Shown here: in pieces, positions 1-37,624 of the stretch
Numbering within the stretch: the first letter of the stretch is position 1
Layout of the letters: the number at the start of each line of letters is the position of its first letter
Assembly: GCA_943354555.1 (NCBI GenBank)
Contig: CALRCM010000003.1
Coordinates: forward strand, 1-58,789
Direction: 5' to 3'
From: Candidatus Peribacteria bacterium
GTDB taxonomy: Bacteria; Patescibacteriota; Gracilibacteria; Peribacterales; Peribacteraceae
DNA: 58,789 bases
The notes under the pieces: generated by a model
Databases searched by the model: none
What the model saw: only the letters and a program-made list of their open reading frames with translations
Told to the model about the DNA's origin: nothing
Translations under genes and position numbers: made by a program

Positions 1-91
1 GTTCACCGGCAATGTCGTGATGGGAATATTCCTTCTTTAGAAGGATGCTGATCTCCAGCCTTTCGGCAGAGGTGAAGTGATGATGGGCCAT
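1..91 (-). mobile_element. IS30-family transposase, N-terminal fragment (runs off window edge)
   Basis: Reverse strand from ATG at 91 reads MAHHHFTSAERLEISILLKKEYSHHDIAGE, resembling the N-terminal HTH of IS30 transposases. The element end probably lies near 117-147 but is not resolved. Confidence 0.7.
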
Positions 92-345
92 AGGGAGTGA
101 GGGTAGAACCTCACCCCAAGTGATGCATTTCAAAGGTCAGCGGCGGTTCGCTCGTTTACAGGATTGGCAGTTTCTTGATGCAGGCGAGGTATGTACACCC
201 GTACATAGCTCGCCTGCATCATTGTCTGGTGCAGCACTCGAGTGCCAAGGTCCTCTGCAGATGGACCGAGGCGGTACCGCCTGTGCGCATCATCGCGTCA
301 GGCTTTTGATTCCGTGTCTTTGACCCAAAGCTTAGGAGAGCTCAG

Positions 346-843
346 ATGTCCATGTACGTTGGAGAAGCCTTGTGCGGCGAAGGGAACGAAGTCGCACACA
401 TCGATCTGTTGATCGGTGACAAAGAAGGCCCCGTTGGGGTCGCGTTCGCGAATGCGTTGAGTCGGCAAAGTGCCGGCCACAGCAATCTCTTGGCTGTGCT
501 AACGGCGAACCTCGCCGTCAAGCCATCCACGGTCTTGATCACTAAGGTCACGATCAAGGGAGCGAAGCAAGCAGTGCAAATGTTCGGCCCGGCGCAGTAC
601 GCCGTCGCTAAGGCTGTCGCCGACAGCGTCGAAAAAGGCGTGATCCCCAAGGACCAAGCCGAGAAGCTCGTCATCGTGTGTGGAGTCTTCATTCATTGGC
701 AGGCAGCCGATGACAAGAAGATCTACGCTTACAACTACGAAGCGACGATGCTGGCCATCGCTCGTGCGATGAAAGACGAGCCCTCGGTTGACGAGATGCT
801 CGCCCAAAAAGACACGGCCAAGCACCCGTTCTTCGCCGGCTAG
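346..843 (+). CDS. fae: Formaldehyde-activating enzyme (H4MPT-linked)
   Basis: Full-length Fae motifs GEALxGxGNEVAHIDLLIG, QAVQMFGPAQxAVAKAVAD, VFIHW, YNYEAT, HPF; SD AGGAG upstream. Confidence 0.93.
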   Translation: MSMYVGEALCGEGNEVAHIDLLIGDKEGPVGVAFANALSRQSAGHSNLLAVLTANLAVKPSTVLITKVTIKGAKQAVQMFGPAQYAVAKAVADSVEKGVIPKDQAEKLVIVCGVFIHWQAADDKKIYAYNYEATMLAIARAMKDEPSVDEMLAQKDTAKHPFFAG

Positions 844-869
844 TCTGCCGCAATCCTGCTACAACGAGT

Positions 870-900
870 GAAAGGCCGGCGCACAGTGCGCCGGTCTTTC
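870..900 (+). terminator. Hairpin/terminator after fae
   Basis: GAAAGGCCGGCGCAC-A-GTGCGCCGGTCTTTC inverted repeat. Confidence 0.65.
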
Positions 901-942
901 CTATGCTTTTGCATATCCAGAAATGGGGATTACCATTGAGCT

Positions 943-1365
943 ATGCACGTCCCGCATCTCAGAAAAAAATTGAAGACCCTCAGCGTGATCATCCTGCTGA
1001 TGCTCGGTGTGGGAATCTTTTCTGGGATCAAGAGGCAATCATCCGATGAACCTCACATCGAGTACTTCGATGTAGACAGTGCAACCTTCGTGTCGCAAAC
1101 AAAATACATCAAGCGCATGGAGGTCTGGATGGTGCCCACAAACGCAAAGCAGGAGAGTGACTGGAAAACCATCGGAATCATGCAGAGGTCTTCGCACTGG
1201 TTTCGTTCCGCTACGTGGATATTGCCGATCCCCGAAAAGCCCGTCGCTGCGACGCAAATCATGGTGCGCGGGTACGATGAAGCGGGCATAGAAGCGGACA
1301 GGGTTTCGCTGCCGTGGATTGGGGAGAAGACATTGAAGAAGAAGATATGGAAAATTGAGAATTGA
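943..1365 (+). CDS. Hypothetical protein with N-terminal membrane anchor
   Basis: Basic N-terminus plus hydrophobic helix (LSVIILLMLGVGIF); TACCAT 6 nt before ATG. Confidence 0.7.
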   Translation: MHVPHLRKKLKTLSVIILLMLGVGIFSGIKRQSSDEPHIEYFDVDSATFVSQTKYIKRMEVWMVPTNAKQESDWKTIGIMQRSSHWFRSATWILPIPEKPVAATQIMVRGYDEAGIEADRVSLPWIGEKTLKKKIWKIEN

Positions 1366-1386
1366 GAATGGAGAATGGAGAATTGG
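1347..1386 (+). repeat. Heptamer tandem array (ATTGAGA/ATGGAGA), left arm
   Basis: atggaaa attgaga attgaga atggaga atggaga attgg; inverted relative to 1798-1834. Confidence 0.9.
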
Positions 1387-1436
1387 GTGTACGATTGTAC
1401 ACTTGTATTTCTGGATACAGCATAGATATTTGATCT

Positions 1437-1799
1437 ATGCAGAAGCCAAATGTCATACGTGATAAATCCTTCCGCTTTGCGGTTCTCGCAGTAAAACTTG
1501 CGCAAGGGATTGTAGACCAGCAGCGTGAGTACGTTCTGAGCAAACAATTCATAGCATCTGCCACAAGTATTGGTGCAAATGTTGAAGAAGGACTGCAGGG
1601 ACAAAGTCGAAAAGACTTTATTTCCAAGATGTCGATTGCACTCAAAGAGGCTTATGAAACTCGTTACTGGCTTCGCTTAATGTTCGAAACAAATCTAGGT
1701 AACCGACAACGCGTCATTGAACTTGGACACGATGTATCGGAGCTAATTTTAATCCTTGCAAGCATTGTCAAAACTTCGAGAACAGGAAAACGAAAATAA
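1437..1799 (+). CDS. Four helix bundle protein (23S rRNA IVP / bAvd-like family)
   Basis: KSFRFA...EYVLSKQFIASATSIGANVEEG...SRKDFISKMSIALKEAYETRYWL signature. Confidence 0.92.
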   Translation: MQKPNVIRDKSFRFAVLAVKLAQGIVDQQREYVLSKQFIASATSIGANVEEGLQGQSRKDFISKMSIALKEAYETRYWLRLMFETNLGNRQRVIELGHDVSELILILASIVKTSRTGKRK

Positions 1800-1834
1800 T
1801 TCTCCATTCTCAATTCTCCATTCTCAATTCCTCC
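1798..1834 (-). repeat. Heptamer tandem array, right arm (inverted copy)
   Basis: aattctcc attctca attctcc attctca attc is the reverse complement of the left-arm units. Confidence 0.9.
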
Positions 1835-3396
1835 AGCGCCCTCTTCGCATCCTCCTCAAGAGGACTTGAAGCAACAGCTCTCTCATACGCCTGCATCGCC
1901 AACTCTCTCTTCCCCTGCGCGCGCAATATCTGCCCCACGTTGTACCACGTCGTCGCATCATCGCGAATCTGCAGGGCTTTACTGTATGCCTGCAATCCCT
2001 CATGTAATCTTCCTCTGCGTACTTCCTCTGTGCCGATGTTACTCCATGCAACGTACGCTCTCGGTTGCGCCTCACTCACATGCGTGAATAGTGTCAGCGT
2101 ATTTTTCCAGACAAGAGATTGTTTATAGGAAAGGACTGAGAAGACGAAGAGGACGAAAAAGACGGTGCTACTGGTAAGAACTGGGAGCTTACGGAACACA
2201 TAAAAGATCAGAAATACAACGACGATCAATAGTCCTATAGAAGGGAGATACGCATACCGGTCCGTCGTTATGTAGATATCGAGCAACTCATTATGCCCCT
2301 TCGTAATATTGGAAAACGATGGAGCGAGGAGCAGCAGGAACCATCCCCACGCGAAGAGCGGCAAACGTACTCCCCTCCTTGCTGCACACGAGAGAACAAC
2401 AACAGAGACGAAGAGGGCGAAAAGGACGGAAAGGAAAAGCTCTGGAGTGAAGAGAGAAACGGGCTTAGTAAATGGATACAGCGCGGAAAGGCCCGAAGGC
2501 CAGAAGAATTTTTGCAGCAGCAGAGTGATCGCGCGGCAACCCATCAGAAATTTTTCGTAGAGGAAGCCCGTATTCGCGATTTTCCCGCCAAGCGCGATGA
2601 TGCCGAAGATCAGAGAAAGAATAGCAAACGGCAGAGCGCGCTTAACGCTATCAGCCGCAGGCGTCCCCACCTTAGGCACAGGCGCTATATACCAATCCAT
2701 AAGCACCATCAGCACCGGCCATGTGATGACAGAAACCTTGGAGAGAAGTGCAAGGAGAAACATCAATACACTCAACCAATACATACCATTCCAAATCTGT
2801 GTCACGCTGAGTAGCGCCGCCGGCCCTGGTTCGATACGTCCTTCGCCAAGCTCAGGACTACTCACCATGACACTGCGGCGCGTATCGAAGCGCGATCGCA
2901 AATAACAGAGCACCGTCAGCAAAAAGAAAAATGCACTCAGCACATCCTTTCGCGCAGCGGCCCAGACGACGGCTTCGGTATGGAGGGGGTGGACGGCGAA
3001 AAGCAATCCGGCGATTATTGAAAATTGAAAATTGAAAATTGAAAATAATTTTCCATTTTCAATTTTCAATTTTCCATTCGGCAATCTGCCAATAATCATT
3101 GCAACCAAAACCGCATTGGATATGTGTAGCAGTAGGTTGCCGAGGTGGTACCCAAACGGCTGCAGCCCCCCGATCATGTAGTTGATCTGATAACTAAGGA
3201 ACGTCAGTGGGATATACAGCTCCGGATCGTACGACGTAAAGGCAAGCCATAGATTGTGAAATGACAGACCTCTGATGATCGGGTTTTCTGTAATAAGCAG
3301 TCCGTCATCCCATGTGACAAAGCCATTGCCTAGTGATTGTCCGTATACAATAAAAGTCAGAACAATAATGCCAAGAATAAGATTAGGGCGAACCAT
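1810..3396 (-). CDS. TMTC-like multi-pass membrane glycosyltransferase with C-terminal TPR
   Basis: N-terminal TM then F-x-x-WDD, YxPLT, HP-x-x-x-E-A-V-x-W, LLSK, DRYAYLP, then TPRs. Start placed at MVRPNL (3396; TAGAGT 7 nt upstream) rather than 3591. Paralog at 42560. Confidence 0.8.
   Translation of the reverse strand: MVRPNLILGIIVLTFIVYGQSLGNGFVTWDDGLLITENPIIRGLSFHNLWLAFTSYDPELYIPLTFLSYQINYMIGGLQPFGYHLGNLLLHISNAVLVAMIIGRLPNGKLKIENGKLFSIFNFQFSIIAGLLFAVHPLHTEAVVWAAARKDVLSAFFFLLTVLCYLRSRFDTRRSVMVSSPELGEGRIEPGPAALLSVTQIWNGMYWLSVLMFLLALLSKVSVITWPVLMVLMDWYIAPVPKVGTPAADSVKRALPFAILSLIFGIIALGGKIANTGFLYEKFLMGCRAITLLLQKFFWPSGLSALYPFTKPVSLFTPELFLSVLFALFVSVVVLSCAARRGVRLPLFAWGWFLLLLAPSFSNITKGHNELLDIYITTDRYAYLPSIGLLIVVVFLIFYVFRKLPVLTSSTVFFVLFVFSVLSYKQSLVWKNTLTLFTHVSEAQPRAYVAWSNIGTEEVRRGRLHEGLQAYSKALQIRDDATTWYNVGQILRAQGKRELAMQAYERAVASSPLEEDAKRALEELRMEN
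2800..2895. repeat. Nested REP-like palindromic element inserted in frame
   Basis: Outer GTCACGCTGAGTAG-CGCCGC...GCGGCG-CGTATCGAAGCG encloses an inverted TGTCATGGTGAGTAG-TCCTGAGCTTGGCGAAGGA-CGTATCGAACCA. Confidence 0.8.
3017..3079. repeat. Inverted heptamer array (ATTGAAA x4 / TTTTCAA-TTTTCCA x4) inside CDS
   Basis: Directly visible; encodes NGKLKIENGKLFSIFNFQFSI. Confidence 0.9.
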
Positions 3397-3414
3397 CTTC
3401 AATACTCTAACAGG

Positions 3415-3601
3415 TGGCGGGGCCCCGCGCGCTACGGGGGGTGAAGGGGAAGGCCCTGCTCTGCGCCGCAGCGCTGTCGAGATGGAAACGCCGAATCCTT
3501 GTAGGCGTTTCCAGCGAGACGCAGGGCCGAGCGGAGGAGAGTTGGCGCGCGGAGAGTTTTTCTTTCCCCCTTTCTTTTGTCTGGCTGACAAAAGAAAGGG
3601 G
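3415..3601. repeat. GC-rich structured intergenic element ending in a perfect hairpin
   Basis: CCGCGCGC...GCGCGCGG and GGAAACGCC...GGCGTTTCC stems, then CCCCTTTCTTTTGTC-TGGCT-GACAAAAGAAAGGGG (3567-3601). Confidence 0.5.
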
Positions 3602-3633
3602 ATATTGAAAGCATAGCCAAATATGCTTCACTC

Positions 3634-3661
3634 TTGACGATACAAATTAGCACTCTATAAT
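3634..3661 (+). promoter_or_regulatory. Sigma-70 promoter of groES-groEL
   Basis: TTGACG (3634-39), 16 nt spacer, TATAAT (3656-61). Confidence 0.8.
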
Positions 3662-3673
3662 TCCGACTGCTAA
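3647..3673 (+). promoter_or_regulatory. CIRCE element (HrcA operator)
   Basis: TTAGCACTC-N9-GACTGCTAA, one mismatch to consensus TTAGCACTC-N9-GAGTGCTAA, upstream of groES. Confidence 0.9.
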
Positions 3674-3740
3674 CGGAGCATTTTGTTCTCCGTTCCGGCC
3701 ATTTCTTCAGCACTTCTTTACCCTTTTCTCCTTAAGCTCT

Positions 3741-4073
3741 ATGGCAAAAGACGATGTCCAACTCGCGACGAACCTTCACCCGATCGGTGACCGCGTGGTT
3801 GTGAGACCACTCGAAAAAGAACAGGTCACTGCCTCCGGCATTGTGATTCCGGACACTGCAAACGGCGAAAAGCCACAGGAAGGTGTTGTCGTTGCTCTCG
3901 GTAAAGGAGGTGTGGGAAAAGACTGTAGTAACCCCACGGACTTCCTCAAAGTTGGCGATAAAGTCCTCTTCGGCAAGTACGCCGGTGACGACGTGAAGCT
4001 CAAGGACAAATCCGGAAAGGACGTTGAAGTGAAGATCCTTCACCTCGACTCCGTCCTCGCCATCGTAAAATAA
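3741..4073 (+). CDS. groES: Co-chaperonin GroES
   Basis: LHPIGDRVVV, TASGIVIPDTA-EKPQEGVVVALG, KVGDKVLFGKYAG. Confidence 0.97.
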   Translation: MAKDDVQLATNLHPIGDRVVVRPLEKEQVTASGIVIPDTANGEKPQEGVVVALGKGGVGKDCSNPTDFLKVGDKVLFGKYAGDDVKLKDKSGKDVEVKILHLDSVLAIVK

Positions 4074-4080
4074 TTTCGAA

Positions 4081-4125
4081 TCCTTTCTGCCTTTCCTGCC
4101 TTACTTTTCTACCTTTCTAACCTCT
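4081..4125 (+). repeat. Degenerate pyrimidine-rich ~9-mer array between groES and groEL
   Basis: cctttctg cctttcctg ccttacttt ttctacctt tctaacctc. Confidence 0.4.
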
Positions 4126-4132
4126 CGTCATT

Positions 4133-5767
4133 ATGGCCAAGCAACTCATCTTCGGAAATGAAGCCCGTCAGAAAATCTTCGCAGGAGTCTCTCAGCTCGC
4201 AGCAGCAGTGCGCGCAACGATGGGCCCCAAGGGCCGCAACGTCGTCATCGAAAAGAAATACGGTGGACCGACCGTCACGAAAGATGGTGTCACCGTCGCT
4301 AAGGAAATCGAGCTCGAAAACCCGTGGGAGAACATGGGCGCTCAGCTCGTGAAGGAAGCAGCAACCAAAACCAATGATGCCGCTGGTGACGGAACGACAA
4401 CGGCTACCGTCCTCGCACATGCCATCATGGAGGAGGGCCTCAAGCACTTGAGTGCAGGCTCCAATGCTATCTCCATCAAGCGCGGTATCGACAAAGCGGT
4501 GAAGGCCGTCAGCGATCATCTGGAGAAGATCAAAAAGAATGTTTCCAAGAAAGAAGAGTACGCAGCGGTTGCAACGATCTCCGCACAAGATGAAGAGATC
4601 GGCGAAGTGATCTCGGAAGTCTTTGCCAAGTTCGGAAGCGGCGGAGTATTTACCGTGGAGGCCGGCCAGACACTCGGCATCGAAAAGGAATTTGTCGAAG
4701 GAATGCAGTTCGATCAGGGATTTATCTCTCCGTACTTCGTCACGGATACTGCGAAGATGGAAGCGTCATTTGAAAACCCATACATCCTTATTACGGATAA
4801 GAAAATCAGCTCCATTCAGGAGATTCTTCCCGTACTCGAGGCACTCGCCCAGCGCGGACGGAAAGAGCTTGTGATCATCGCGGAAAGCGTCGATGGCGAA
4901 GCGCTGGCAACACTGGTCGTGAATAAACTCCGCGGTACATTCACCACCCTTGCCATCAAGGCTCCTGCCTTCGGTGACCGCCGCAAAGAGATCCTCAAAG
5001 ATATCGCGATCCTTACAGGAGGCCGCGTGATCTCTGAGGAAGTCGGTTTGAAGCTCGAAAATGCGACCATCGATGATCTCGGAAAGTCCCGCCGCGTCAT
5101 CGCAGACAAAGACAATTGCACGGTGATCGGCGGAGCCGGAAAGAAGAAGGACATCGAGGACCGCGTAAACGAGATCAAAGTCCAGATCGAAAACACGAAA
5201 AGTGACTTCGATAAAGACAAACTCATGGAACGCCTCGCGAAGCTCTCCGGAGGTGTCGCCGTCATCAAAGTCGGTGCCGCTACGGAAGTGGAGCAGAAGG
5301 AGAAGCAGCACCGTGTGGAAGATGCGCTTGCAGCGACCCGCGCGGCCTCCGAAGAAGGCATCGTCGCCGGAGGAGGCACAGCCTACATACGGTCACTGCC
5401 AATGCTTGAAAAGCTTCACAAGGATACGAAGGACAAAGACGAGAAGCTTGGCATCGAGATCATCATGAATGCGCTCATCGCCCCCACCCACCACATCGCC
5501 CAAAACGGTGGTGTAAGCGGTGAAGTCGTCGTCACCAAGGTCAAAGACCTTACGGGAGACAACGGCTACAACGCGCTCACGGACAAGTACGAGGACCTCG
5601 TCAAAGGCATGGTCATCGACCCGAAGAAAGTCACGCGCTGCGCTCTCGAAAACGCCGCGTCAGTCGCTTCCATGTTCCTCACGCTTGAAGTCGGCATTAC
5701 GGATATCCCGAAGCCCGAACCTGCAATGCCCCAGATGCCAGGAGGCGGAATGGGCGGTGATTTCTAA
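4133..5767 (+). CDS. groEL: Chaperonin GroEL
   Basis: [34 protein letters not shown]-type tail. Confidence 0.99.
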
Positions 5768-5785
5768 GCCAAAAATGATCATAGG

Positions 5786-5813
5786 AAACAGGGGCAAAAT
5801 GCCCCTGTTTTTT
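5786..5813 (+). terminator. Intrinsic terminator of groESL
   Basis: AAACAGGGGCA-AAA-TGCCCCTGTTT followed by a T run. Confidence 0.85.
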
Positions 5814-5862
5814 GTTAGGTTTAATTGATTATAGTGAAACAAAATAGTATTTTGTCACGCTT

Positions 5863-8800
5863 ATGCCTCGGGATTTACTCAGCTACAGATGGCAGGAAGA
5901 ATATGTATCCCATCCTCCAGAAGGAGAAAGATACGATGTCTGGCATTATCGGAGTCTTATACAACAAGCATGCAATCTGCCAAACAAGCCTCCTCACGAT
6001 TTGACTCCGGAAATTGCAGATGAGATCCGCTTTGTCCGCAATGACATTGCCATTGCACTACCAGAGAATTTCTCACGTCGTGATGCGTTCTCTCTTTTTC
6101 TGACACACGAAAATCCGATGGGAACGTACTACATGCTCGATGACTTGGGAGATATCGCCTATGATCAAGAAAAAGAATTAGCGGCGATCCAATCGAGTTC
6201 ATACTTGCCCGGATATTGGGACCTTGAACCCAAGGAATTGATGGACTCTTACCACCGGTCACTTGACCCTCAAAAGAAAAAACGCGAGGGATCCGTCGAC
6301 TTCCCGACAAATGACAGGGTGAGCATCCGCCTCGGTATCCGCCGAACGCAGAAGCCTGCACCTAAGCAGGTTGTCGAAGGACTCTTTTATGAGCAATTTT
6401 TTTCCGATGAATGGAATTGGGAGTACGGAGCGCCGCAGCTCTTTGCCGCAATTGAAAAAAATCTCGAGAGCAGAACAGTGACAGACGACCCGTTTGAATG
6501 GGTACAGGAACGGATTTCCATCGCTGCAGGGTACTCCATTCTCGGAGGCGGAAAAGAATGCTCACCCCCCTTCCTTGCGCAGGCCTACGAGCGCATGGCA
6601 TCAACGGTATGCAATGGCATACCAGTGGGACATGAGGAGTTTAGAGAATATGAGATCGGTGAAGAGGAGCAAAATCTTCTGATTGAATTGTATGGTCGCT
6701 ATGCATCTTCACTATCACCCGAGATGGTTGAATTCGTTATGGCGCACGCCGTCGTCCTTACACCACAAATCCTGCGTGAGAGCGAGCACATCAAAAAATT
6801 TCTGACACACCTTCCCGAAATGCTTAGTAACGGTCTGAACATCGACAGGGTATTCGAGTATGCTATAGAACCCACAAAAGAAAGTGGGACCGGATTACAG
6901 CGACTGGAATCAGCCCTTCGCATGACCATGAGCATTTACCGCGGGGAAAAACCATGGTGGTTCAAAGAAGATTTCAGCATGAGCGAATGGCTACAGGAAG
7001 ACGACGGCCATGAAACAAACGGACGCCTGCGCCTGCACAATAACCAACTTGGCCGAGCAACGCTTGAGCGCATCGCTCAGAGGGCAGGTTTTGCTTTTAC
7101 CCACGTCCTGGAGCCCTACCACGCCGTAGGGTACCGCATGGGATCCCTACCACCGTTCACGGAAGAGGATGCGATTGATTTCACCGCATTTGTCACAGAA
7201 CACTATGGTATCGGCAACCGCAGGCGTTCCATCGAAGTGATTCGAAATTGCCTCTATATCCTGGAACAGGAAGCACTCCCACTCCGTCATGAGCGCCTCA
7301 AAAACCTGCGTGAGCACCTCGATGAAGTGAAGCCGCAGACACACACGATTGGCCGACTGGAAGCGCGCGATCCGGTCTTCGAAATGCCGGGCGTCCATGT
7401 GCTTACGGCGACGATGCTGCGGAGAAGCCTTGCGGAAAGCATGGAAGTCCATGATCTACGCATCGGTTTTGACATACTCGAGGCGATCGACGAGAAATTT
7501 CAGGAACCTCTTGAGGTTCGGGCACGGACGTACGCTCCGGCACTTCCATCTCATCTTGCTAACATGCAACGAAGAGGGCTTCTCATCAACCAGTCTCCGG
7601 AAGCGCGACTGGCGCTGCCGATTCCCGAAGGCCATCTCCTTGCAAATGTTGAACGCAGGAATCCGTCACTTGGGATTTTTGATTTTTACGCGCAACTCAA
7701 ACAGGAGTGTGGACAAGTCAACCGTGACGTCGCAAAAATCTATTTCCAGCATTGTGCTGCGCGGATGCCCGACCCCTGGCACCCTCCAAAAGGTTTTTTA
7801 CGCTTCCTTGAGCTTTTCGATTTCATCAACACGCCGGGATGGCGCTTCACCGCAATGGAGCATCCCCGGGACCGGCCCAAGGTCTCCGAACAAAATCAGC
7901 GCCGCGAAGTAGCAAAGCAGATGCTCGTCTCCAACATGCTGGATGCCTGGATCATGGGGCTTCTCACCAGTGAAGAACTGGAAGCGCTCTGCAGATGGAT
8001 AACAGCGGAACTAACCGACGAAGAACGCATCGAAATCGAGAAGGATGTGCTGTGGAGCCAAAACGATGATTTGGCGAAGCTCAATCTCCCTTTACCTCCA
8101 CCGGTGGCTGAGGATGAACCGGAGGACATAGAATTATTGACACACGGCAGGATCTCATCCTATATGCGCAGACAGCTTCGCCGTCCGCTTCCTCCAAAGC
8201 CCGTGCCTACGGAGGAGGAACGCGAACAAGAGGCGATGGAGCGGTTGGAAATGAATGTGCGGTCAGAGTGCCAACAGCGTGAGCAAAGGATCCGGTCACA
8301 GAGAATGGTGGCACTCCAGGAAACGTTCACCATGCTCAGCGTGCTCAACAGCATGGCAATTGCAGGATCCTTCAGCATCGCCGAATTGCGCTCTGTGCTC
8401 CGTGAAACTGTGCTCCCTGCCGCCATCAGAGGCGCAGACCAGGGCACGGGAGAAGTACACGCCATACAGCAAGGGGCAATGCTAACAAACCTCGTTCGAA
8501 TGCAGGAACTTGGGGGCATCGATCACCAGGGGTTCCGGTCAGCAATCGAAGGAAGCGCAAGCCCGGAGGAAGCACGGAAAACAGCTTACGACTTCATCCA
8601 ACAAGTGCTTCTGCGTTGCATGGAGGAATCCCTCAACGAAGCCCTGCCAAATGCCATCAATACAGTGACAAGTGTGATGAAAGCACATGCCGGCAAGCCG
8701 GATACAGCGGAAGGAGCACTTGCACGCGCGGTAGGCCAGGCCCGCAAAGATTTGGAAACAGAGCTGCGACGCATTTGGAATGATGCACCATTTGCCGCAC

Positions 8801-27842: not shown

Positions 27843-28985
27843 ATGAAAATTCTCGTTGCCCTCTCCGGCGGTATAGATAGCTCTGTCGTTGCACATCTGC
27901 TCAAGCATGCGGGGCATGAACTGATCGCTGTGCGATTCCTCCTCTGGACGGATCCGCTAGCCCCTGCGCTTGCGGAAATCCTCCCCAGTAAGTGCTGCAC
28001 GACACAGAACGCGATGCGCGCGCAGAAGGTCGCAGAAACTCTGGGAATCCCCTATCACATCGTTGATCTCAGTGAGGAATTCAAGCGAACGGTCGTGGAC
28101 CCGTATCTTGAAAGTCACCGTAAGGGTCTTACGCCCAATCCCTGCATTGGCTGTAACCGCACGATCAAGTTCGGAAAGCTGATCGATCTCATGAAGGAGT
28201 ACGGATGTGAAAAACTGGCAACGGGACATTATGCGAGGATTGGGAATGAACCGTTGCACGTTGCAGGTTACAAAGAAACTCTTTGCAACCTGCAACCTGC
28301 AACTTGCAACAAATCAAACCGTTATGCTCTTCTCGAGGCCACAGATAAATCCAAAGACCAAAGCTATTACCTCTATGGACTCACGCAGGATCAGTTATCG
28401 CATTGCCTCTTTCCCCTCGGAGCAATGCAAAAATCGGAAGTGTATGCCCTCGCAAAGGAATTCTCTGTGCCGTTCGACGACACTTCCTACCGCGAAAGTC
28501 AGGATCTGTGTTTCTTTCCGGAAAAGACTCCGGAAGCATTTCTCAAGAGGCATCTTCAGGACGCGCTACATCCTGGACCAATCATGAGAAGAGATGGATC
28601 CGTCGTCGGAGCGCATGAGGGACTACCACTCTATACCTTCGGTCAGAGACGCGGACTGAAGATCGGAGGACTCAAAATTCCCCTGGAAGTCGTAGCGAAA
28701 GACGCGAAAAGCAATGCTCTTGTGGTTGCAGATCGGGGTACGGAAGTACTCCATGAAGTAAAACTGAAAGATATTGTCTGGATCGGAGAAGGGCCTGCAG
28801 AGTCAGTGGACATCCCCCTTCAGTGCCGCACTCGATCCCTCTCAAGGAAGCTAGAAGGAACACTGCGCTATACGGGTAATTCAGGAATGTTTACGTTCGC
28901 AAATCCACAACCTCCGCAAAGCCCCGGTCAATCGCTTGTGTTCTACAAAAATGAGGAAATTGTGGGAGGCGGAATTATGCAGTAA
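27843..28985 (+). CDS. mnmA: tRNA-specific 2-thiouridylase
   Basis: SGGIDS PP-loop, TPNPCIGCN, ATGHYAR, KDQSYYL, ESQDLCF, GQRRGL, PGQSLVFY. Confidence 0.97.
   Translation: MKILVALSGGIDSSVVAHLLKHAGHELIAVRFLLWTDPLAPALAEILPSKCCTTQNAMRAQKVAETLGIPYHIVDLSEEFKRTVVDPYLESHRKGLTPNPCIGCNRTIKFGKLIDLMKEYGCEKLATGHYARIGNEPLHVAGYKETLCNLQPATCNKSNRYALLEATDKSKDQSYYLYGLTQDQLSHCLFPLGAMQKSEVYALAKEFSVPFDDTSYRESQDLCFFPEKTPEAFLKRHLQDALHPGPIMRRDGSVVGAHEGLPLYTFGQRRGLKIGGLKIPLEVVAKDAKSNALVVADRGTEVLHEVKLKDIVWIGEGPAESVDIPLQCRTRSLSRKLEGTLRYTGNSGMFTFANPQPPQSPGQSLVFYKNEEIVGGGIMQ
28253..28310. repeat. Inverted heptamer array (GTTGCAG/TGCAACC) inside mnmA
   Basis: gttgcac gttgcag gttacaaaga-aac-tctt tgcaacc tgcaacc tgcaact tgcaac. 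Confidence 0.9.
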
Positions 28986-33559: not shown

Positions 33560-36500
33560 ATGATCGAGCAAAAGGACGCCGGCTCCCAGGGCGCCCGTCA
33601 GGGCGGGGGGAGAGCGTTTTCCCATATCCGGACAATTCTGCTTCTGGGATCCGGCGCTCTCAAGATCGGAGAGGCAGGAGAATTTGACTACTCCGGAAGC
33701 CAAGCGATCAAAGCATATAAAGAGGAGGGGCTCAGGGTTGTCCTCATCAATCCGAATATCGCCACAAATCAGACAAGCTGGGGACTTGCCGATCGCGTCT
33801 ATTTTGAGCCAGTGACGCCCGCTTTTGTTGAGCGGATTATCGCCATCGAAAAACCTGAAGCGATTGCACTCAGCTTTGGTGGGCAAACCGCTCTCAACTG
33901 CGGCGTCGCTCTCGATGCTCAGGGCACGCTACAAAAATACGGTGTAGAAGTACTGGGAACGTCTGTCGAAAGCATCCGAAAAACGGAAGACCGTGCACTC
34001 TTCAATGCTGAGCTCAAATCTATCGGCGTAGATGTTCCGCGATCATACGCCTGCACCACACTCGATGAAGCCATGCAGGCAGGAAGGACTATCGGATGTC
34101 CGGTTATCGTCCGGGCCGCATACGCACTAGGAGGCAAGGGCAGTGGCAGAGCCATGAACGAAGAAGAACTACGGGATCTCTGCAAAATCGCGTTTGTAGA
34201 GTCTCCACAAGTTCTCGTAGAGGAAGATCTCACAGGATGGAAAGAGATCGAGTACGAAGTTGTACGGGACTCTGCAGATAACTGCATCACCGTCTGCAAC
34301 ATGGAAAACGTCGACCCACTGGGAATCCACACCGGAGAATCCATCGTTGTAGCGCCCAGCCAGACACTCGATAACGAGGATTATCAGATGCTTAGGAGCA
34401 TCGCTCTCAAGGTCATCCGTCATCTCCGTATTGTCGGTGAATGTAATATTCAATACGCGCTCGATCCGAAATCGCGGACGTATCGCGTCATCGAAGTGAA
34501 TGCACGACTCAGTAGAAGTTCTGCTCTGGCATCAAAGGCTACCGGTTATCCGCTAGCATTCGTCGCAGCGAAGCTAGGAATTGGCTACCTGCTACCCGAG
34601 ATCCGCAATGCGATTACGAAGACAACGTGTGCGGACTTCGAACCATCTCTCGATTACGTTGCGGTAAAAATGCCGCGCTGGGATCTCCAGAAATTTCGTT
34701 TTGTGTCCGATCAGGTGACGAGTGAAATGAAATCCGTCGGTGAAGTCATGGCGATAGGACGATCCTTTGAAGAGGCACTGCAAAAAGCCATTCGGATGCT
34801 CAACATAGGTGCTGACGGACTTTTCCATACCAAATTTATCTTCAAGGATCTCACGGCGGAAGTGAAGCGCCCAACTCCACGACGCATCTTCGCTGTTGCA
34901 GAGGCGCTTAGCGGCGAGTGGAATCCAGAGGAGACATCCATCGCCACTGGTATCGACCGTTGGTTTTTAGAGCGCATACATGCATGTGCAAAGCATCTGA
35001 AGCAGATGACCAAAGCCGGTGAGTCGATACCTCCTGATATGTTGCGGAAAGCCAAAATGATGGGTTTTTCAGATCGATCCATTGCGAGTTGCACCGGCAT
35101 AGATCCCGAAGCACTACGGACCAAGCGCATTGGCCTTGGCATAACACCGGTTGTAAAACAAATCGATACACTTGCGGGAGAATTCCCGGCCCAAACGAAT
35201 TACCTGTACCTGACATACCATGGAACGGAGCATGATGTGTGTTTCGATACAGACCAGTTGCGGGTTACGAGTTGCGGGTTACGAGATAAACTAGCAACGA
35301 GCAACCAGCAACCCGAAACTGTCGTTGTTCTCGGCGGCGGTCCGTATTCCATCGGATCTTCGGTAGAATTCGACTGGTGTTGTGTGCAAGCGACTCATGA
35401 ACTTCAGCGGCAAGGAAAGTTCGTCGCGATGATCAACAGCAATCCTGAAACTGTCAGTACGGATTTTGATGAATGTGACATGCTCTTCTTCGATGAGCTC
35501 ACCGACGAGCGAGTGCGTGATATTGCAGATCTTCTGCACCCTGAAGGGGTTGTGGTCTCCATGGGCGGACAGATTCCAAACTCTCTGGCTCCGAAGCTTG
35601 CATCTGCGGGAATTCCCATCCTCGGAACAGCCCCGAAAGATATCGACCGTGCTGAAGATAGACATAAGTTCTCTACCCTCCTCGATGAACTGCAGATAGA
35701 CCAACCAGCTTGGCAGGAATTTTCCGACCTGCGCTCAGCAGTGGCATTCGCGCAAAGTGTGGGTTACCCCGTCATCGTCCGACCGAGCTACGTGCTTTCT
35801 GGTGCATCCATGGCAGTCGTACATACGGATGCCGACCTAGAGGAATACATCAGTCTGTCCGCATATGTAAATAAGGAAGCCCCAATCGTCGTCTCAAAGT
35901 TTGAAGTGGGAGCGAAAGAGATCGAGCTCGATGGAGTTGCACAGAATGGAAAACTCCTGATCTACGCAGTTGCCGAGCACGTCGAGAATGCCGGCGTGCA
36001 TTCGGGCGATGCAACTATCGTCCTCCCACCTCAACGGGTAAACCTTGAGACGTTGCGACAAATCAAAACGGTAGGAAAGAATATTGCTGCAGGACTTTGC
36101 ATCTCCGGACCCTTTAACATCCAGTTCCTTGCAGTGAATAATCGGATCAAGGTTATTGAGTGCAATCTACGGGCTAGCCGCAGTTTTCCATTCGCGAGCA
36201 AGGTCACCGGAGAGAACTTTGCATCTCTTGCGACACAAGCACTCCTCGGTAAGGCTCCGACCGACCGACGCTACCAGACGCTGGATCTCGACCACGTCGG
36301 AGTAAAAGCAGCGCAGTTCAGTTTCTCCAGACTACGTGGAGCCGACCCACGTCTTGGCGTAGAGATGGCAAGCACAGGGGAAGTCGCTTGTTTCGGTCGA
36401 AATGCAGAGCAAGCCCTACTCACAGCCCTTCTTGCTGTTGGATTTACCATACCGAAGAAAAATATCCTTGTTACGGTCGGGCGCCTCGAGGATAAAGTGG

Positions 36501-37554: not shown

Positions 37555-37624
37555 TAGAGAACAGAGAAAAGAGAACTGAACCATCTCTTTTCTCTTTTCT
37601 CTATTCTCTATTCTCTTTACTCTA
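37553..37624. repeat. Inverted heptamer array (AATAGAG/TCTCTAT) after greA
   Basis: aatagag aacagag aaaagag ... tctcttt tctcttt tctctat tctctat tctcttt. Confidence 0.85.

Follow-up and report, generated by a model that had tools for sequence, protein, structure and literature searches.

In a 58,789-nucleotide (nt) stretch of DNA from Candidatus Peribacteria (contig CALRCM010000003.1 of assembly GCA_943354555.1; the whole stretch is referred to as the window), a gene of the four-helix-bundle family PF05635/TIGR02436 lies between two arrays of tandem heptamers that are inverted relative to each other and that also supply the stop codons of both convergent neighbours. This cassette is a real, non-chance feature. 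It is an element of the type known from rRNA intervening sequences (IVSs) in a new setting, to which a family-wide rule and a co-occurrence of gene and hairpins can be added: judged from the flanks of its relatives, the inverted-array build is a property of the PF05635 gene family, not of this genome alone, and hairpins made of tandem units, without an open reading frame (ORF), were found in those sampled genomes that carry the gene. In the literature consulted, mostly outside subscription journals, neither inverted tandem arrays as a general PF05635 flank nor dispersed heptamer hairpins co-occurring with PF05635 were found described.

The cassette and its inverted arms

The genome of the window (G000; 1.16 Mb in 70 contigs, 93% complete) contains the following features at the cassette:

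943..1365, + strand: left neighbour, a hypothetical protein of 140 amino acids (aa) ending ...WKIEN*, of which KIEN* is arm-encoded (ORF list)
1347..1385, no strand: left (5') arm, about 4.7 heptamers ATTGAGA/ATGGAGA, free of C (repeat search and Tandem Repeats Finder, TRF)
1387..1402, + strand: palindrome GTGTACGATTGTACAC (GTGTAC-N4-GTACAC), 34 nt upstream of the ATG, a putative operator (of LexA or competence type) or promoter element
1412..1448, + strand: small local hairpin over the start codon, 16-nt arms, 81% complementary, also paired in the RNA fold
1437..1799, + strand: PF05635/TIGR02436 four-helix-bundle gene (23S rRNA IVP/S23p family), 120 aa (ORF list, profile matches)
1798..1835, no strand: right (3') arm, about 5.1 heptamers ATTCTCC/ATTCTCA, beginning within the stop codon of the cassette gene itself (repeat search, TRF)
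1810..3591, - strand: right neighbour, a TPR-bearing membrane protein, termed TMTC-like in the original prediction, ending ...ELRMEN*, of which RMEN* is arm-encoded (ORF list, Pfam)

The repeat search pairs 1353-1384 with 1798-1829 as inverted arms of 32 nt, 94% complementary and separated by 413 nt, and TRF delimits the period-7 arrays, with 4.7 copies at 1347-1385 and 5.1 at 1798-1835. When at most one mismatch is allowed, GAGAATKGAGAAT matches the window eight times against 0.18 matches expected, a count attained in none of 100 shuffles; all but one of the eight matches fall inside the two arms. The TGA stop of the left neighbour (1363-1365) is located within the left array and the stop of the right neighbour (1810-1812, minus strand) within the right one, and 1437-1799 on the plus strand is the sole sensible ORF between them. 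The whole unit measures about 490 nt, with a stem of about 35 bp. In the fold computed for the RNA of 1340-1840 the arms constitute the outermost stem, at a minimum free energy of -150.4 kcal/mol (z -5.17; 0 of 100 shuffles equally stable). The original prediction, made from the sequence alone, had described a four-helix-bundle gene enclosed by inverted heptamer arrays, both neighbours ending inside these arrays, and an RNA stem around the ORF; this description was borne out, the stem being computed, not observed.

An intrinsic terminator was considered and rejected: the stem of about 35 bp is AT-rich, the loop spans 413 nt and no T-run follows position 1835. Searched against Rfam, positions 1-6000 of the window yielded no family at gathering score and three sub-threshold matches, all at 3000-3123 and taken to be due to chance.

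The only other PF05635 gene of G000, on contig C16, is located between ftsZ and a convergent dut. Its arms are inverted arrays of 9-mers, (AGGTTGCGA)x4, 38 nt long and 84% complementary, and the ftsZ stop falls within the first unit of the array. Both PF05635 genes of the genome (2/2) thus share the same build, and their arm sequences, GAGAATK 7-mers in the first copy and AGGTTGCGA 9-mers in the second, are unrelated.

To our knowledge, no function has been assigned to the very widespread, multi-copy S23p/IVP family since its discovery in rRNA intervening sequences. For the product of 1437-1799, the PF05635 profile gives 80.6 bits (cut-off 33.8; E 1.2e-22) over positions 5-104 of its 106 and the TIGR02436 profile 93.4 bits (cut-off 24; E 9.1e-27), and residues 3-115 match PDB entry 2rld, which was deposited with five chains, at E 2.3e-30. 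From the conserved motif GxxRxxxSxxxNxxE that PMC3936711 gives for the PF05635/TIGR02436 family, the window protein has S44, N48 and E51; the near-invariant Arg column of the family alignment (R40) is occupied by Ala in the window protein and by Lys in the ortholog of the same-genus genome G001. Two ortholog pairs of the ORF give a nonsynonymous divergence (dN) of 0.13-0.24, the upper value against the G001 ortholog, with the synonymous divergence (dS) saturated; by these rates the ORF is under purifying selection. Members of the family are reported between cas genes (PMC3936711), in a CRISPR-association screen (PMC10910872) and within 16S/23S insertions of the candidate phyla radiation (10.1101/2024.02.27.582315).

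Targets of diversity-generating retroelements (DGRs) need a downstream hairpin, and the arms could conceivably act as such a target-site hairpin for an accessory protein of the Avd type. PF05635 has been likened to Avd (PMC10053308), with which it shares a related fold and family (cd16375/PF05635-like) and the pentameric four-helix-bundle ring that binds nucleic acid. The window gene, unlike avd, is isolated among unrelated genes, a search of the 93% complete G000 for a reverse transcriptase (PF00078) gave 0 matches, and the repeats of 1200-2000 show no evident pair of template and variable repeats, a formal search for which was not made; we consider a DGR role to have a negligible probability.

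Flanking arrays and ORF-less hairpins

Of the 41 related genomes searched by profile, 30 have PF05635 matches, 24 being the most in any one of them. At 31 loci of related genomes, from which the locus of the window itself and two with cut flanks were dropped (n=28), the best inverted match between the two 450-nt flanks was scored, values of at least 26 bits being counted as strong, and the same test moved about 1 kb to the left or to the right in the same loci served as control. Strong inverted flanks were present at 17 of the 28 loci, as against 0/28 and 0/28 in the shifted controls; by eye, most of the 11 weaker loci also carry short tandem-unit arms. A second scan, with one genome per species across bacteria, was queried with a 9-sequence alignment and samples the canonical PF05635 subfamily, not the subfamily of the window protein; it kept 80 loci, of which 63 had full flanks and were scored. 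Here, 39 of 63 loci have strong inverted flanks and the controls 1/63 and 0/63, the loci belonging to Bacteroidota, Planctomycetota, Acidobacteriota, Proteobacteria, Cyanobacteria, Peribacteria and others. The association of the family with such arrays, singled out as a check in the original prediction, was found in both samples.

The strong loci of the two samples, 56 in total, are alike in their dimensions: 40 have arms of period 7, 8 of period 8, 7 of period 9 and a single one of period 4. Spans have a median of 461 nt, and the median distances are 32 nt from the end of the left arm to the ATG and 10 nt from the stop to the start of the right arm. Arm sequence varies from locus to locus and pairing is always kept. 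On the inward strand the 112 arms contain 36.5% G and 9.7% C, and 68 of them carry stop codons in at least two frames when read inward, compared with 24 when read outward. Since the period is 7 nt, three successive units put one triplet in all three frames. At 41 of the 56 loci a long neighbour ORF (at least 80 codons) ends within an arm (left 33, right 22, both 14), and in control windows 400 nt farther out such ends number 5 and 6. On this evidence from flanking sequence, the supply of stop codons to the neighbours by the arms holds as a general property of strong loci.

Arrays of the same kind are dispersed through G000. TRF yields 683 merged arrays, among them 245, 81 and 140 with periods of 7, 8 and 9, respectively, compared with 143 arrays, 20 of them of period 7, in the shuffled genome. 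Inverted array pairs with a loop of at most 100 nt, hereafter called hairpins, number 51 in 1165 kb and 0 in the shuffled genome; they have medians of 4.4 units and 32 nt per arm and belong to the unit families AATTGAR, AGTATTA, AAGATAC, AGAGAAA, GTTGCAG, CTAGAATA, GAATACGS, GGGTTTAT and others, the commonest of which includes the arms of the window cassette. According to crude gene calls, spacers of tandem, divergent and convergent genes hold 21, 10 and 3 of them, respectively, 15 lie within genes and the last 2 are at contig edges, a placement that is not terminator-like. The polarity of the cassette arms, with G exceeding C in the 5' arm and C exceeding G in the 3' arm, recurs in 47 of the 51 hairpins, and in the related genome G016 both the cassette arms and the ORF-less hairpins have AGGGAAT units and an AGTMATT interruption.

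That the gene merely happens to stand between two arrays at a convergent gene pair, in a genome rich in hairpins or terminators, is hardly credible, even though period-7 arrays are numerous and a few ordinary genes (rsmG-like, NUDIX-like and others) are also found between inverted arrays of the common AATTGAR family. Both PF05635 genes of G000 are bracketed, and by different units, the hairpins are not distributed in the way of terminators, and strong flanks across many phyla (39/63 against 1/126 for the pooled controls) disfavour coincidence unless the controls are biased.

The ORF-less arrays that the original prediction had named in the window do exist (TRF; gene names from Pfam):

3017..3078: hairpin (ATTGAAA)4(AATTTTC)4, in frame within the right neighbour, the TPR/TMTC-like gene
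28284-28310: tandem-unit array inside mnmA, read in frame
35256-35313: tandem-unit array or hairpin inside carB, read in frame
37556-37624: ORF-less array after greA

At the site of the 3017-3078 hairpin, same-genus orthologs carry different, unrelated inserts of similar length at the same protein loop, and within the hairpin the array unit that would yield an in-frame TGA is mutated. Unit variants are shuffled between the arms, so that among the hairpins of the loci examined no more than 3 combine at least 26 of 30 in-register pairs with a short loop.

The number of hairpins was compared with that of PF05635 matches in G000 and seven genomes of the same family or class, these seven being sampled partly (183-400 kb):

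G000: 2 PF05635 matches, 51 hairpins, 1165 kb
G015: 24 PF05635 matches, 16 hairpins, 183 kb
G016: 8 PF05635 matches, 16 hairpins, 400 kb
G010: 10 PF05635 matches, 19 hairpins, 400 kb
G007: 0 PF05635 matches, 0 hairpins, 400 kb
G021: 0 PF05635 matches, 0 hairpins, 201 kb
G027: 0 PF05635 matches, 0 hairpins, 342 kb
G013: 0 PF05635 matches, 0 hairpins, 400 kb

ORF-less hairpins are thus present in 4/4 sampled genomes with the gene and in 0/4 without it. A second criterion, arrays with a reverse-complement partner at most 170 nt away, gives the same division: 98, 11, 15 and 20 partnered arrays in the four genomes with PF05635 against 0/29, 0/21, 0/10 and 0/26 in the four without. Together with the common polarity and the shared unit families, these counts agree with the earlier suggestion that the cassette may be the protein-coding member of the hairpin family. 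The 1.2-kb flanks of the many-phyla loci, cassette excluded, contain 6 ORF-less hairpins in 151 kb. In G013, one solitary array of the AATTGAR family, GAATGGAGAATTGAGAATTGAAAATTGAGAATT, was observed; it may be a relic.

Low-copy protein genes between inverted, hairpin-forming repeats, with dispersed ORF-less copies and with repeats only where the gene is present, are also characteristic of the REP-associated tyrosine transposases (RAYTs) and their REPINs, the hairpin-forming repeats derived from repetitive extragenic palindromes (REPs), and RAYT genes are flanked by their own REP repeats (PMC3116915). The hairpins could accordingly be miniature elements moved by a Y1 (IS200/RAYT-like) transposase, with the PF05635 gene as a frequent passenger. 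G000 has 4 matches to PF01797, the Y1 family, one of them behind the same palindrome as the cassette gene, and the two families mostly co-occur: among the 41 genomes, 26 have both, 4 PF05635 only, 5 PF01797 only and 6 neither. Y1 transposases do not, however, account for the division of genomes by hairpins, because the hairpin-free G013 and G021 (400 and 201 kb) carry PF01797. There are also 4 genomes with PF05635 and without PF01797, and across phyla the flanking arrays are found at PF05635 genes in particular. The units of a single genome are highly diverse, the present arms consisting of tandem units of many unrelated sequences, unlike REPs, which keep a conserved sequence throughout a genome. 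RAYTs are, moreover, Y1 transposases with known chemistry, in contrast to the present four-helix bundle without known catalysis. Membership of the cassette in the REP/REPIN-RAYT group was thus rejected, the flanked gene being PF05635, not PF01797, and a Y1 origin of the hairpins is improbable.

Polymorphism among same-genus genomes

The two sites occupied in G000, the spacer between the hypothetical left neighbour and the TMTC-like gene (hyp|TMTC-like) and the ftsZ|dut spacer, differ in content among congeners:

hyp|TMTC-like, G000: PF05635 gene, forward
hyp|TMTC-like, G001: same gene (67% aa identity) inverted, the upstream palindrome now beside the right arm
hyp|TMTC-like, G003 (C65, 2409-2921): NYN gene in inverted orientation, heptamer arms degenerate on one side
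hyp|TMTC-like, G002 and G006: small palindromic elements
hyp|TMTC-like, G004: 1.4-kb insert
hyp|TMTC-like, G005: empty, 23 nt
ftsZ|dut, G006: entire cassette including arms kept, 76% nucleotide identity to G000
ftsZ|dut, G002 (closest relative, ftsZ protein 99.8% identical): ordinary 67-nt terminator, no arrays
ftsZ|dut, G005: 79-nt ORF-less tandem-unit hairpin with other units
ftsZ|dut, G003 and G004: GC-rich hairpin elements

The empty sites that the original prediction had proposed to look for in close relatives were therefore found, in G005 at the first spacer and, with an ordinary terminator, in G002 at the second, and from such comparisons we infer that the cassette is mobile. At the hyp|TMTC-like spacer the arms are mostly retained among congeners, because they encode the C-termini of both neighbours, and the content between them is variable. 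The NYN gene of G003 (PF01936, E 1.1e-17) shares with the PF05635 gene the palindrome upstream and the first five codons (MQKPN), which suggests that one cargo was replaced by another while the 5' module stayed. The idea that NYN genes are a regular second cargo was rejected, since the NYN gene of G000 (C2), with the same palindrome upstream, is without flanking arrays. In G001, compared with G000, every unit of one arm reads GAAAATK in place of GAGAATK, and the other arm shows the complementary change along its whole length; this pattern indicates a concerted, compensatory evolution of the arms.

The retention of arms around changing content (the gene in either direction, NYN, palindromic elements or nothing) is also what would be expected if the hairpins were targets made by the host or by another agent and only the inner module of promoter and ORF were mobile, with hairpin loops as landing places comparable to the tips of rRNA helices. 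The rRNA IVSs are located in helix 45 or helix 25 (PMC4990558), the arms of the two G000 copies differ from each other, and hairpin loops in G000 hold 0 to 83 nt of unique sequence, all in keeping with such homing into loops. The hairpins are not independent of the gene, however, being absent from the four sampled genomes without it; the closest relative, G002, lacks both the arms and the gene at ftsZ|dut; and at the same site the cassette is conserved with its arms between G000 and G006. Homing into pre-existing loops is thus rather unlikely, and the preferred reading remains an IVS-type cassette that includes its arms.

The inverted inner segment of G001, with the arms in place, could also point to an inverton, in which the arms would be recombination sites for a regulated flipping of the inner promoter. 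Both neighbours converge on the cassette, however, so that no downstream gene could be driven in either orientation, an adjacent invertase gene is lacking, and the inversion was seen as a difference between species. An inverton is therefore very improbable.

Several further elements were observed in the spacers of relatives. The small palindromic elements (G002:C4, G004:C53 and G003/G004 at ftsZ|dut) include one with termini like GGTCGCATTGGAAAAGTGCC, and others are GC-rich CCCCTTCC...GGAAGGGG hairpins. In G006, two contig ends carry the 3' end of ftsZ (the C12/C14 pair), one followed by the cassette and a convergent dut and the other by dut in the opposite orientation, which could reflect a strain mixture or a duplicated locus in the bin.

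A proposed selfish cassette between protein genes

The 23S rRNA IVS of Coxiella is an element of 428-444 nt. Its terminal inverted repeats pair into a stem of 28 bp, the loop contains an S23p (PF05635) ORF, and GACAGAT heptamers are present as three tandem copies, a number that varies among strains; RNase III cuts it mid-stem in vitro, the ORF is reported as decaying and probably untranslated, and the element is regarded as selfish and of unknown origin (PMC4990558). Protein family, inverted-repeat stem, tandem heptamers and size (about 490 nt in the window, a median of 461 nt over the 56 loci) correspond to those of the rRNA IVSs with an S23p ORF in Coxiella and Leptospira. Unlike these, the window cassette is located in the intergenic spacer of convergent protein genes, not in 23S helix 25 or 45; its gene has an operator-like palindrome upstream and is under purifying selection, in contrast to the decaying Coxiella ORF; and RNase III cleavage, demonstrated for Coxiella, is predicted for the window cassette. 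The earlier proposal of a candidate unrecognised mobile or RNA-processing system is supported, neither of its two refuting outcomes (vertical conservation without empty sites, and arrays unassociated with the family) having occurred, with the qualification that the anatomy is in part already known from the Coxiella IVS (PMC4990558).

The upstream palindrome was sought in G000 with at most one mismatch to [GT]TGTACG[AT]T[TC]GTACAC. Relatives of it precede lexA (two sites), recA, ssb, yraN, comM, topA and both PF05635 genes, and also a ComEC-like, an NYN and a Y1-type gene. Pfam searches with N-terminal fragments matched LexA, SSB, UPF0102 and ChlI, and RecA weakly; the names topA, ComEC-like and Y1-type are readings of the fragments, and the ComEC-like, NYN and Y1-type fragments were without a Pfam match.

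The explanation that we favour, and to which we attach a moderate probability, is an IVS-type selfish cassette residing between two protein genes instead of in rRNA. Its unit would comprise (i) an inverted-heptamer stem of about 35 bp, (ii) an inner promoter or operator and (iii) a PF05635 gene in the loop, encoding an Avd-like, pentamer-forming protein. On any crossing transcript, the arms are predicted to form an RNase III-type stem, which would excise or insulate the insert as in the Coxiella rRNA IVS (an RNase III gene is located at C29:3286-3672 of G000), and they would halt incoming translation in any frame; owing to stem and stops together, insertion at gene ends would be harmless. The arms would also be recombinogenic, and inversion, loss and cargo swap could all result from their recombination. 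Probably ring-shaped and meeting the 4-5 units of an arm, the protein is inferred to act in trans on the hairpin family, in its spread, maintenance or homogenisation; such an action on 4-5-unit arrays would explain why hairpins are found only with the gene, and gene and hairpins would be related in a way similar to RAYT genes and REPINs. Expression is predicted to be tied to a DNA-damage or DNA-uptake regulon via the GTGTAC-N4-GTACAC operator.

Several observations weigh against this explanation or parts of it. Flanks below 26 bits were found at 11 of the 28 related-genome loci and 24 of the 63 many-phyla loci, 23 of the 112 arms are without any inward stop, and the co-occurrence sample consists of 8 related, non-independent genomes, 7 of them read partly. 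The palindrome looks like an SOS- or competence-type operator of this lineage from motif position alone, and by eye the motif is visible at three of the six same-genus PF05635 copies whose flanks were read (G001, G005 and G006). Loops of 25-300 nt in 24 inverted array pairs contained no PF05635 remnant (best E 0.94) in a profile search of low power for pieces of 8-28 aa, and a derivation of the hairpins from cassettes through ORF deletion is thus not supported by any remnant sequence. Empty ftsZ|dut sites are filled by unrelated terminators or hairpins, so that a clean junction before and after insertion is not reconstructable. The two G000 copies have unrelated arms and no visible target-site duplication, which makes a classic transposition cycle unlikely; the PF05635 protein has no known catalytic motif, and no enzyme for movement was identified. 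The origin of new copies and of new arm sequences is not explained by the cassette model.

A short insert between inverted repeats, its presence or absence in relatives and its ORF-less kin are likewise features of insertion sequences (ISs) and of MITEs, the miniature inverted-repeat transposable elements. Unlike in these, the arms are internally tandem-repetitive and not conserved between copies. A classic IS or MITE was rejected: the termini differ between the two G000 copies, the sequence shows no evident direct repeat outside the arms of either, and neither a target-site duplication nor a transposase was found.

Xanthomonas has about 185 arrays of GGGAATC heptamers, 70-75 of them as close convergent pairs, which were read as G-quadruplex formers (PMC4692102). 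As far as described, these and cyanobacterial heptamer repeats resemble the present arrays in having about four units, many close inverted pairs and the G-rich strand inward, and the Xanthomonas arrays lie for the most part between genes, near the 3' end of the upstream one (PMC4692102). The units in G000, by contrast, are mostly not capable of forming G-quadruplexes, and the link to a gene family is the chief point of the present finding; PMC4692102 draws none to PF05635, and '23S' occurs 0 times in its text.

Heptamer arrays form a long-noted, unexplained excess among bacterial simple repeats. In a wider and decidedly tentative version of the explanation, which we would at present sooner doubt than accept, PF05635 proteins would be the trans-acting partners of a pan-bacterial, unnamed class of miniature hairpins with 4-5 tandem 7-9-mers and a G-rich 5' arm, for which the rRNA IVS would be one landing place; the pentameric ring would read about five units on single-stranded DNA or RNA and promote the creation, copying or homogenisation of hairpins upon DNA damage or uptake, under a control of SOS or competence type. 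If true, this would account for heptamers as the over-represented long simple repeat in bacteria and for IVP genes inside operons, cas loci and rRNA genes. The link between gene and arrays gives the S23p/IVP family and the heptamer arrays a testable shared context, with 4-5 tandem units, as stem or single strand, as the predicted substrate of the protein, and it explains the odd repeat-encoded tails of neighbouring genes. Where IVP genes have been reported as associated with cas loci or with rRNA genes, the cause may be a cassette that lands harmlessly almost anywhere. Annotation artefacts can also arise from this source, through C-termini encoded by repeats and through hairpins read in frame in conserved genes, carB and mnmA among them.

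Both neighbours of the cassette are accompanied by features of their own. The left neighbour (943-1365) has orthologs in six same-genus genomes and matched no Pfam or NCBIfam family; just upstream, at 346-843, lies a gene for formaldehyde-activating enzyme (Fae; PF08714, E 3e-73), unusual in so small a genome. A GC-rich dispersed repeat of about 190 nt, at ~3413-3605, is located just upstream of the TPR gene or constitutes its dubious N-terminal extension; it has no Rfam match and many copies with 77-96% identity, in G000 (C38, C14, C57, C63, C1) and in all six same-genus genomes. Within the ORF 1810-3591, a stretch of about 95 nt at ~2793-2895, which encodes ...SVMVSSPELGEGRIEPGPAAL..., recurs at 82-91% identity (in G000 twice on C1, twice on C42 and on C2, and in relatives) and appears to be an in-frame dispersed element.

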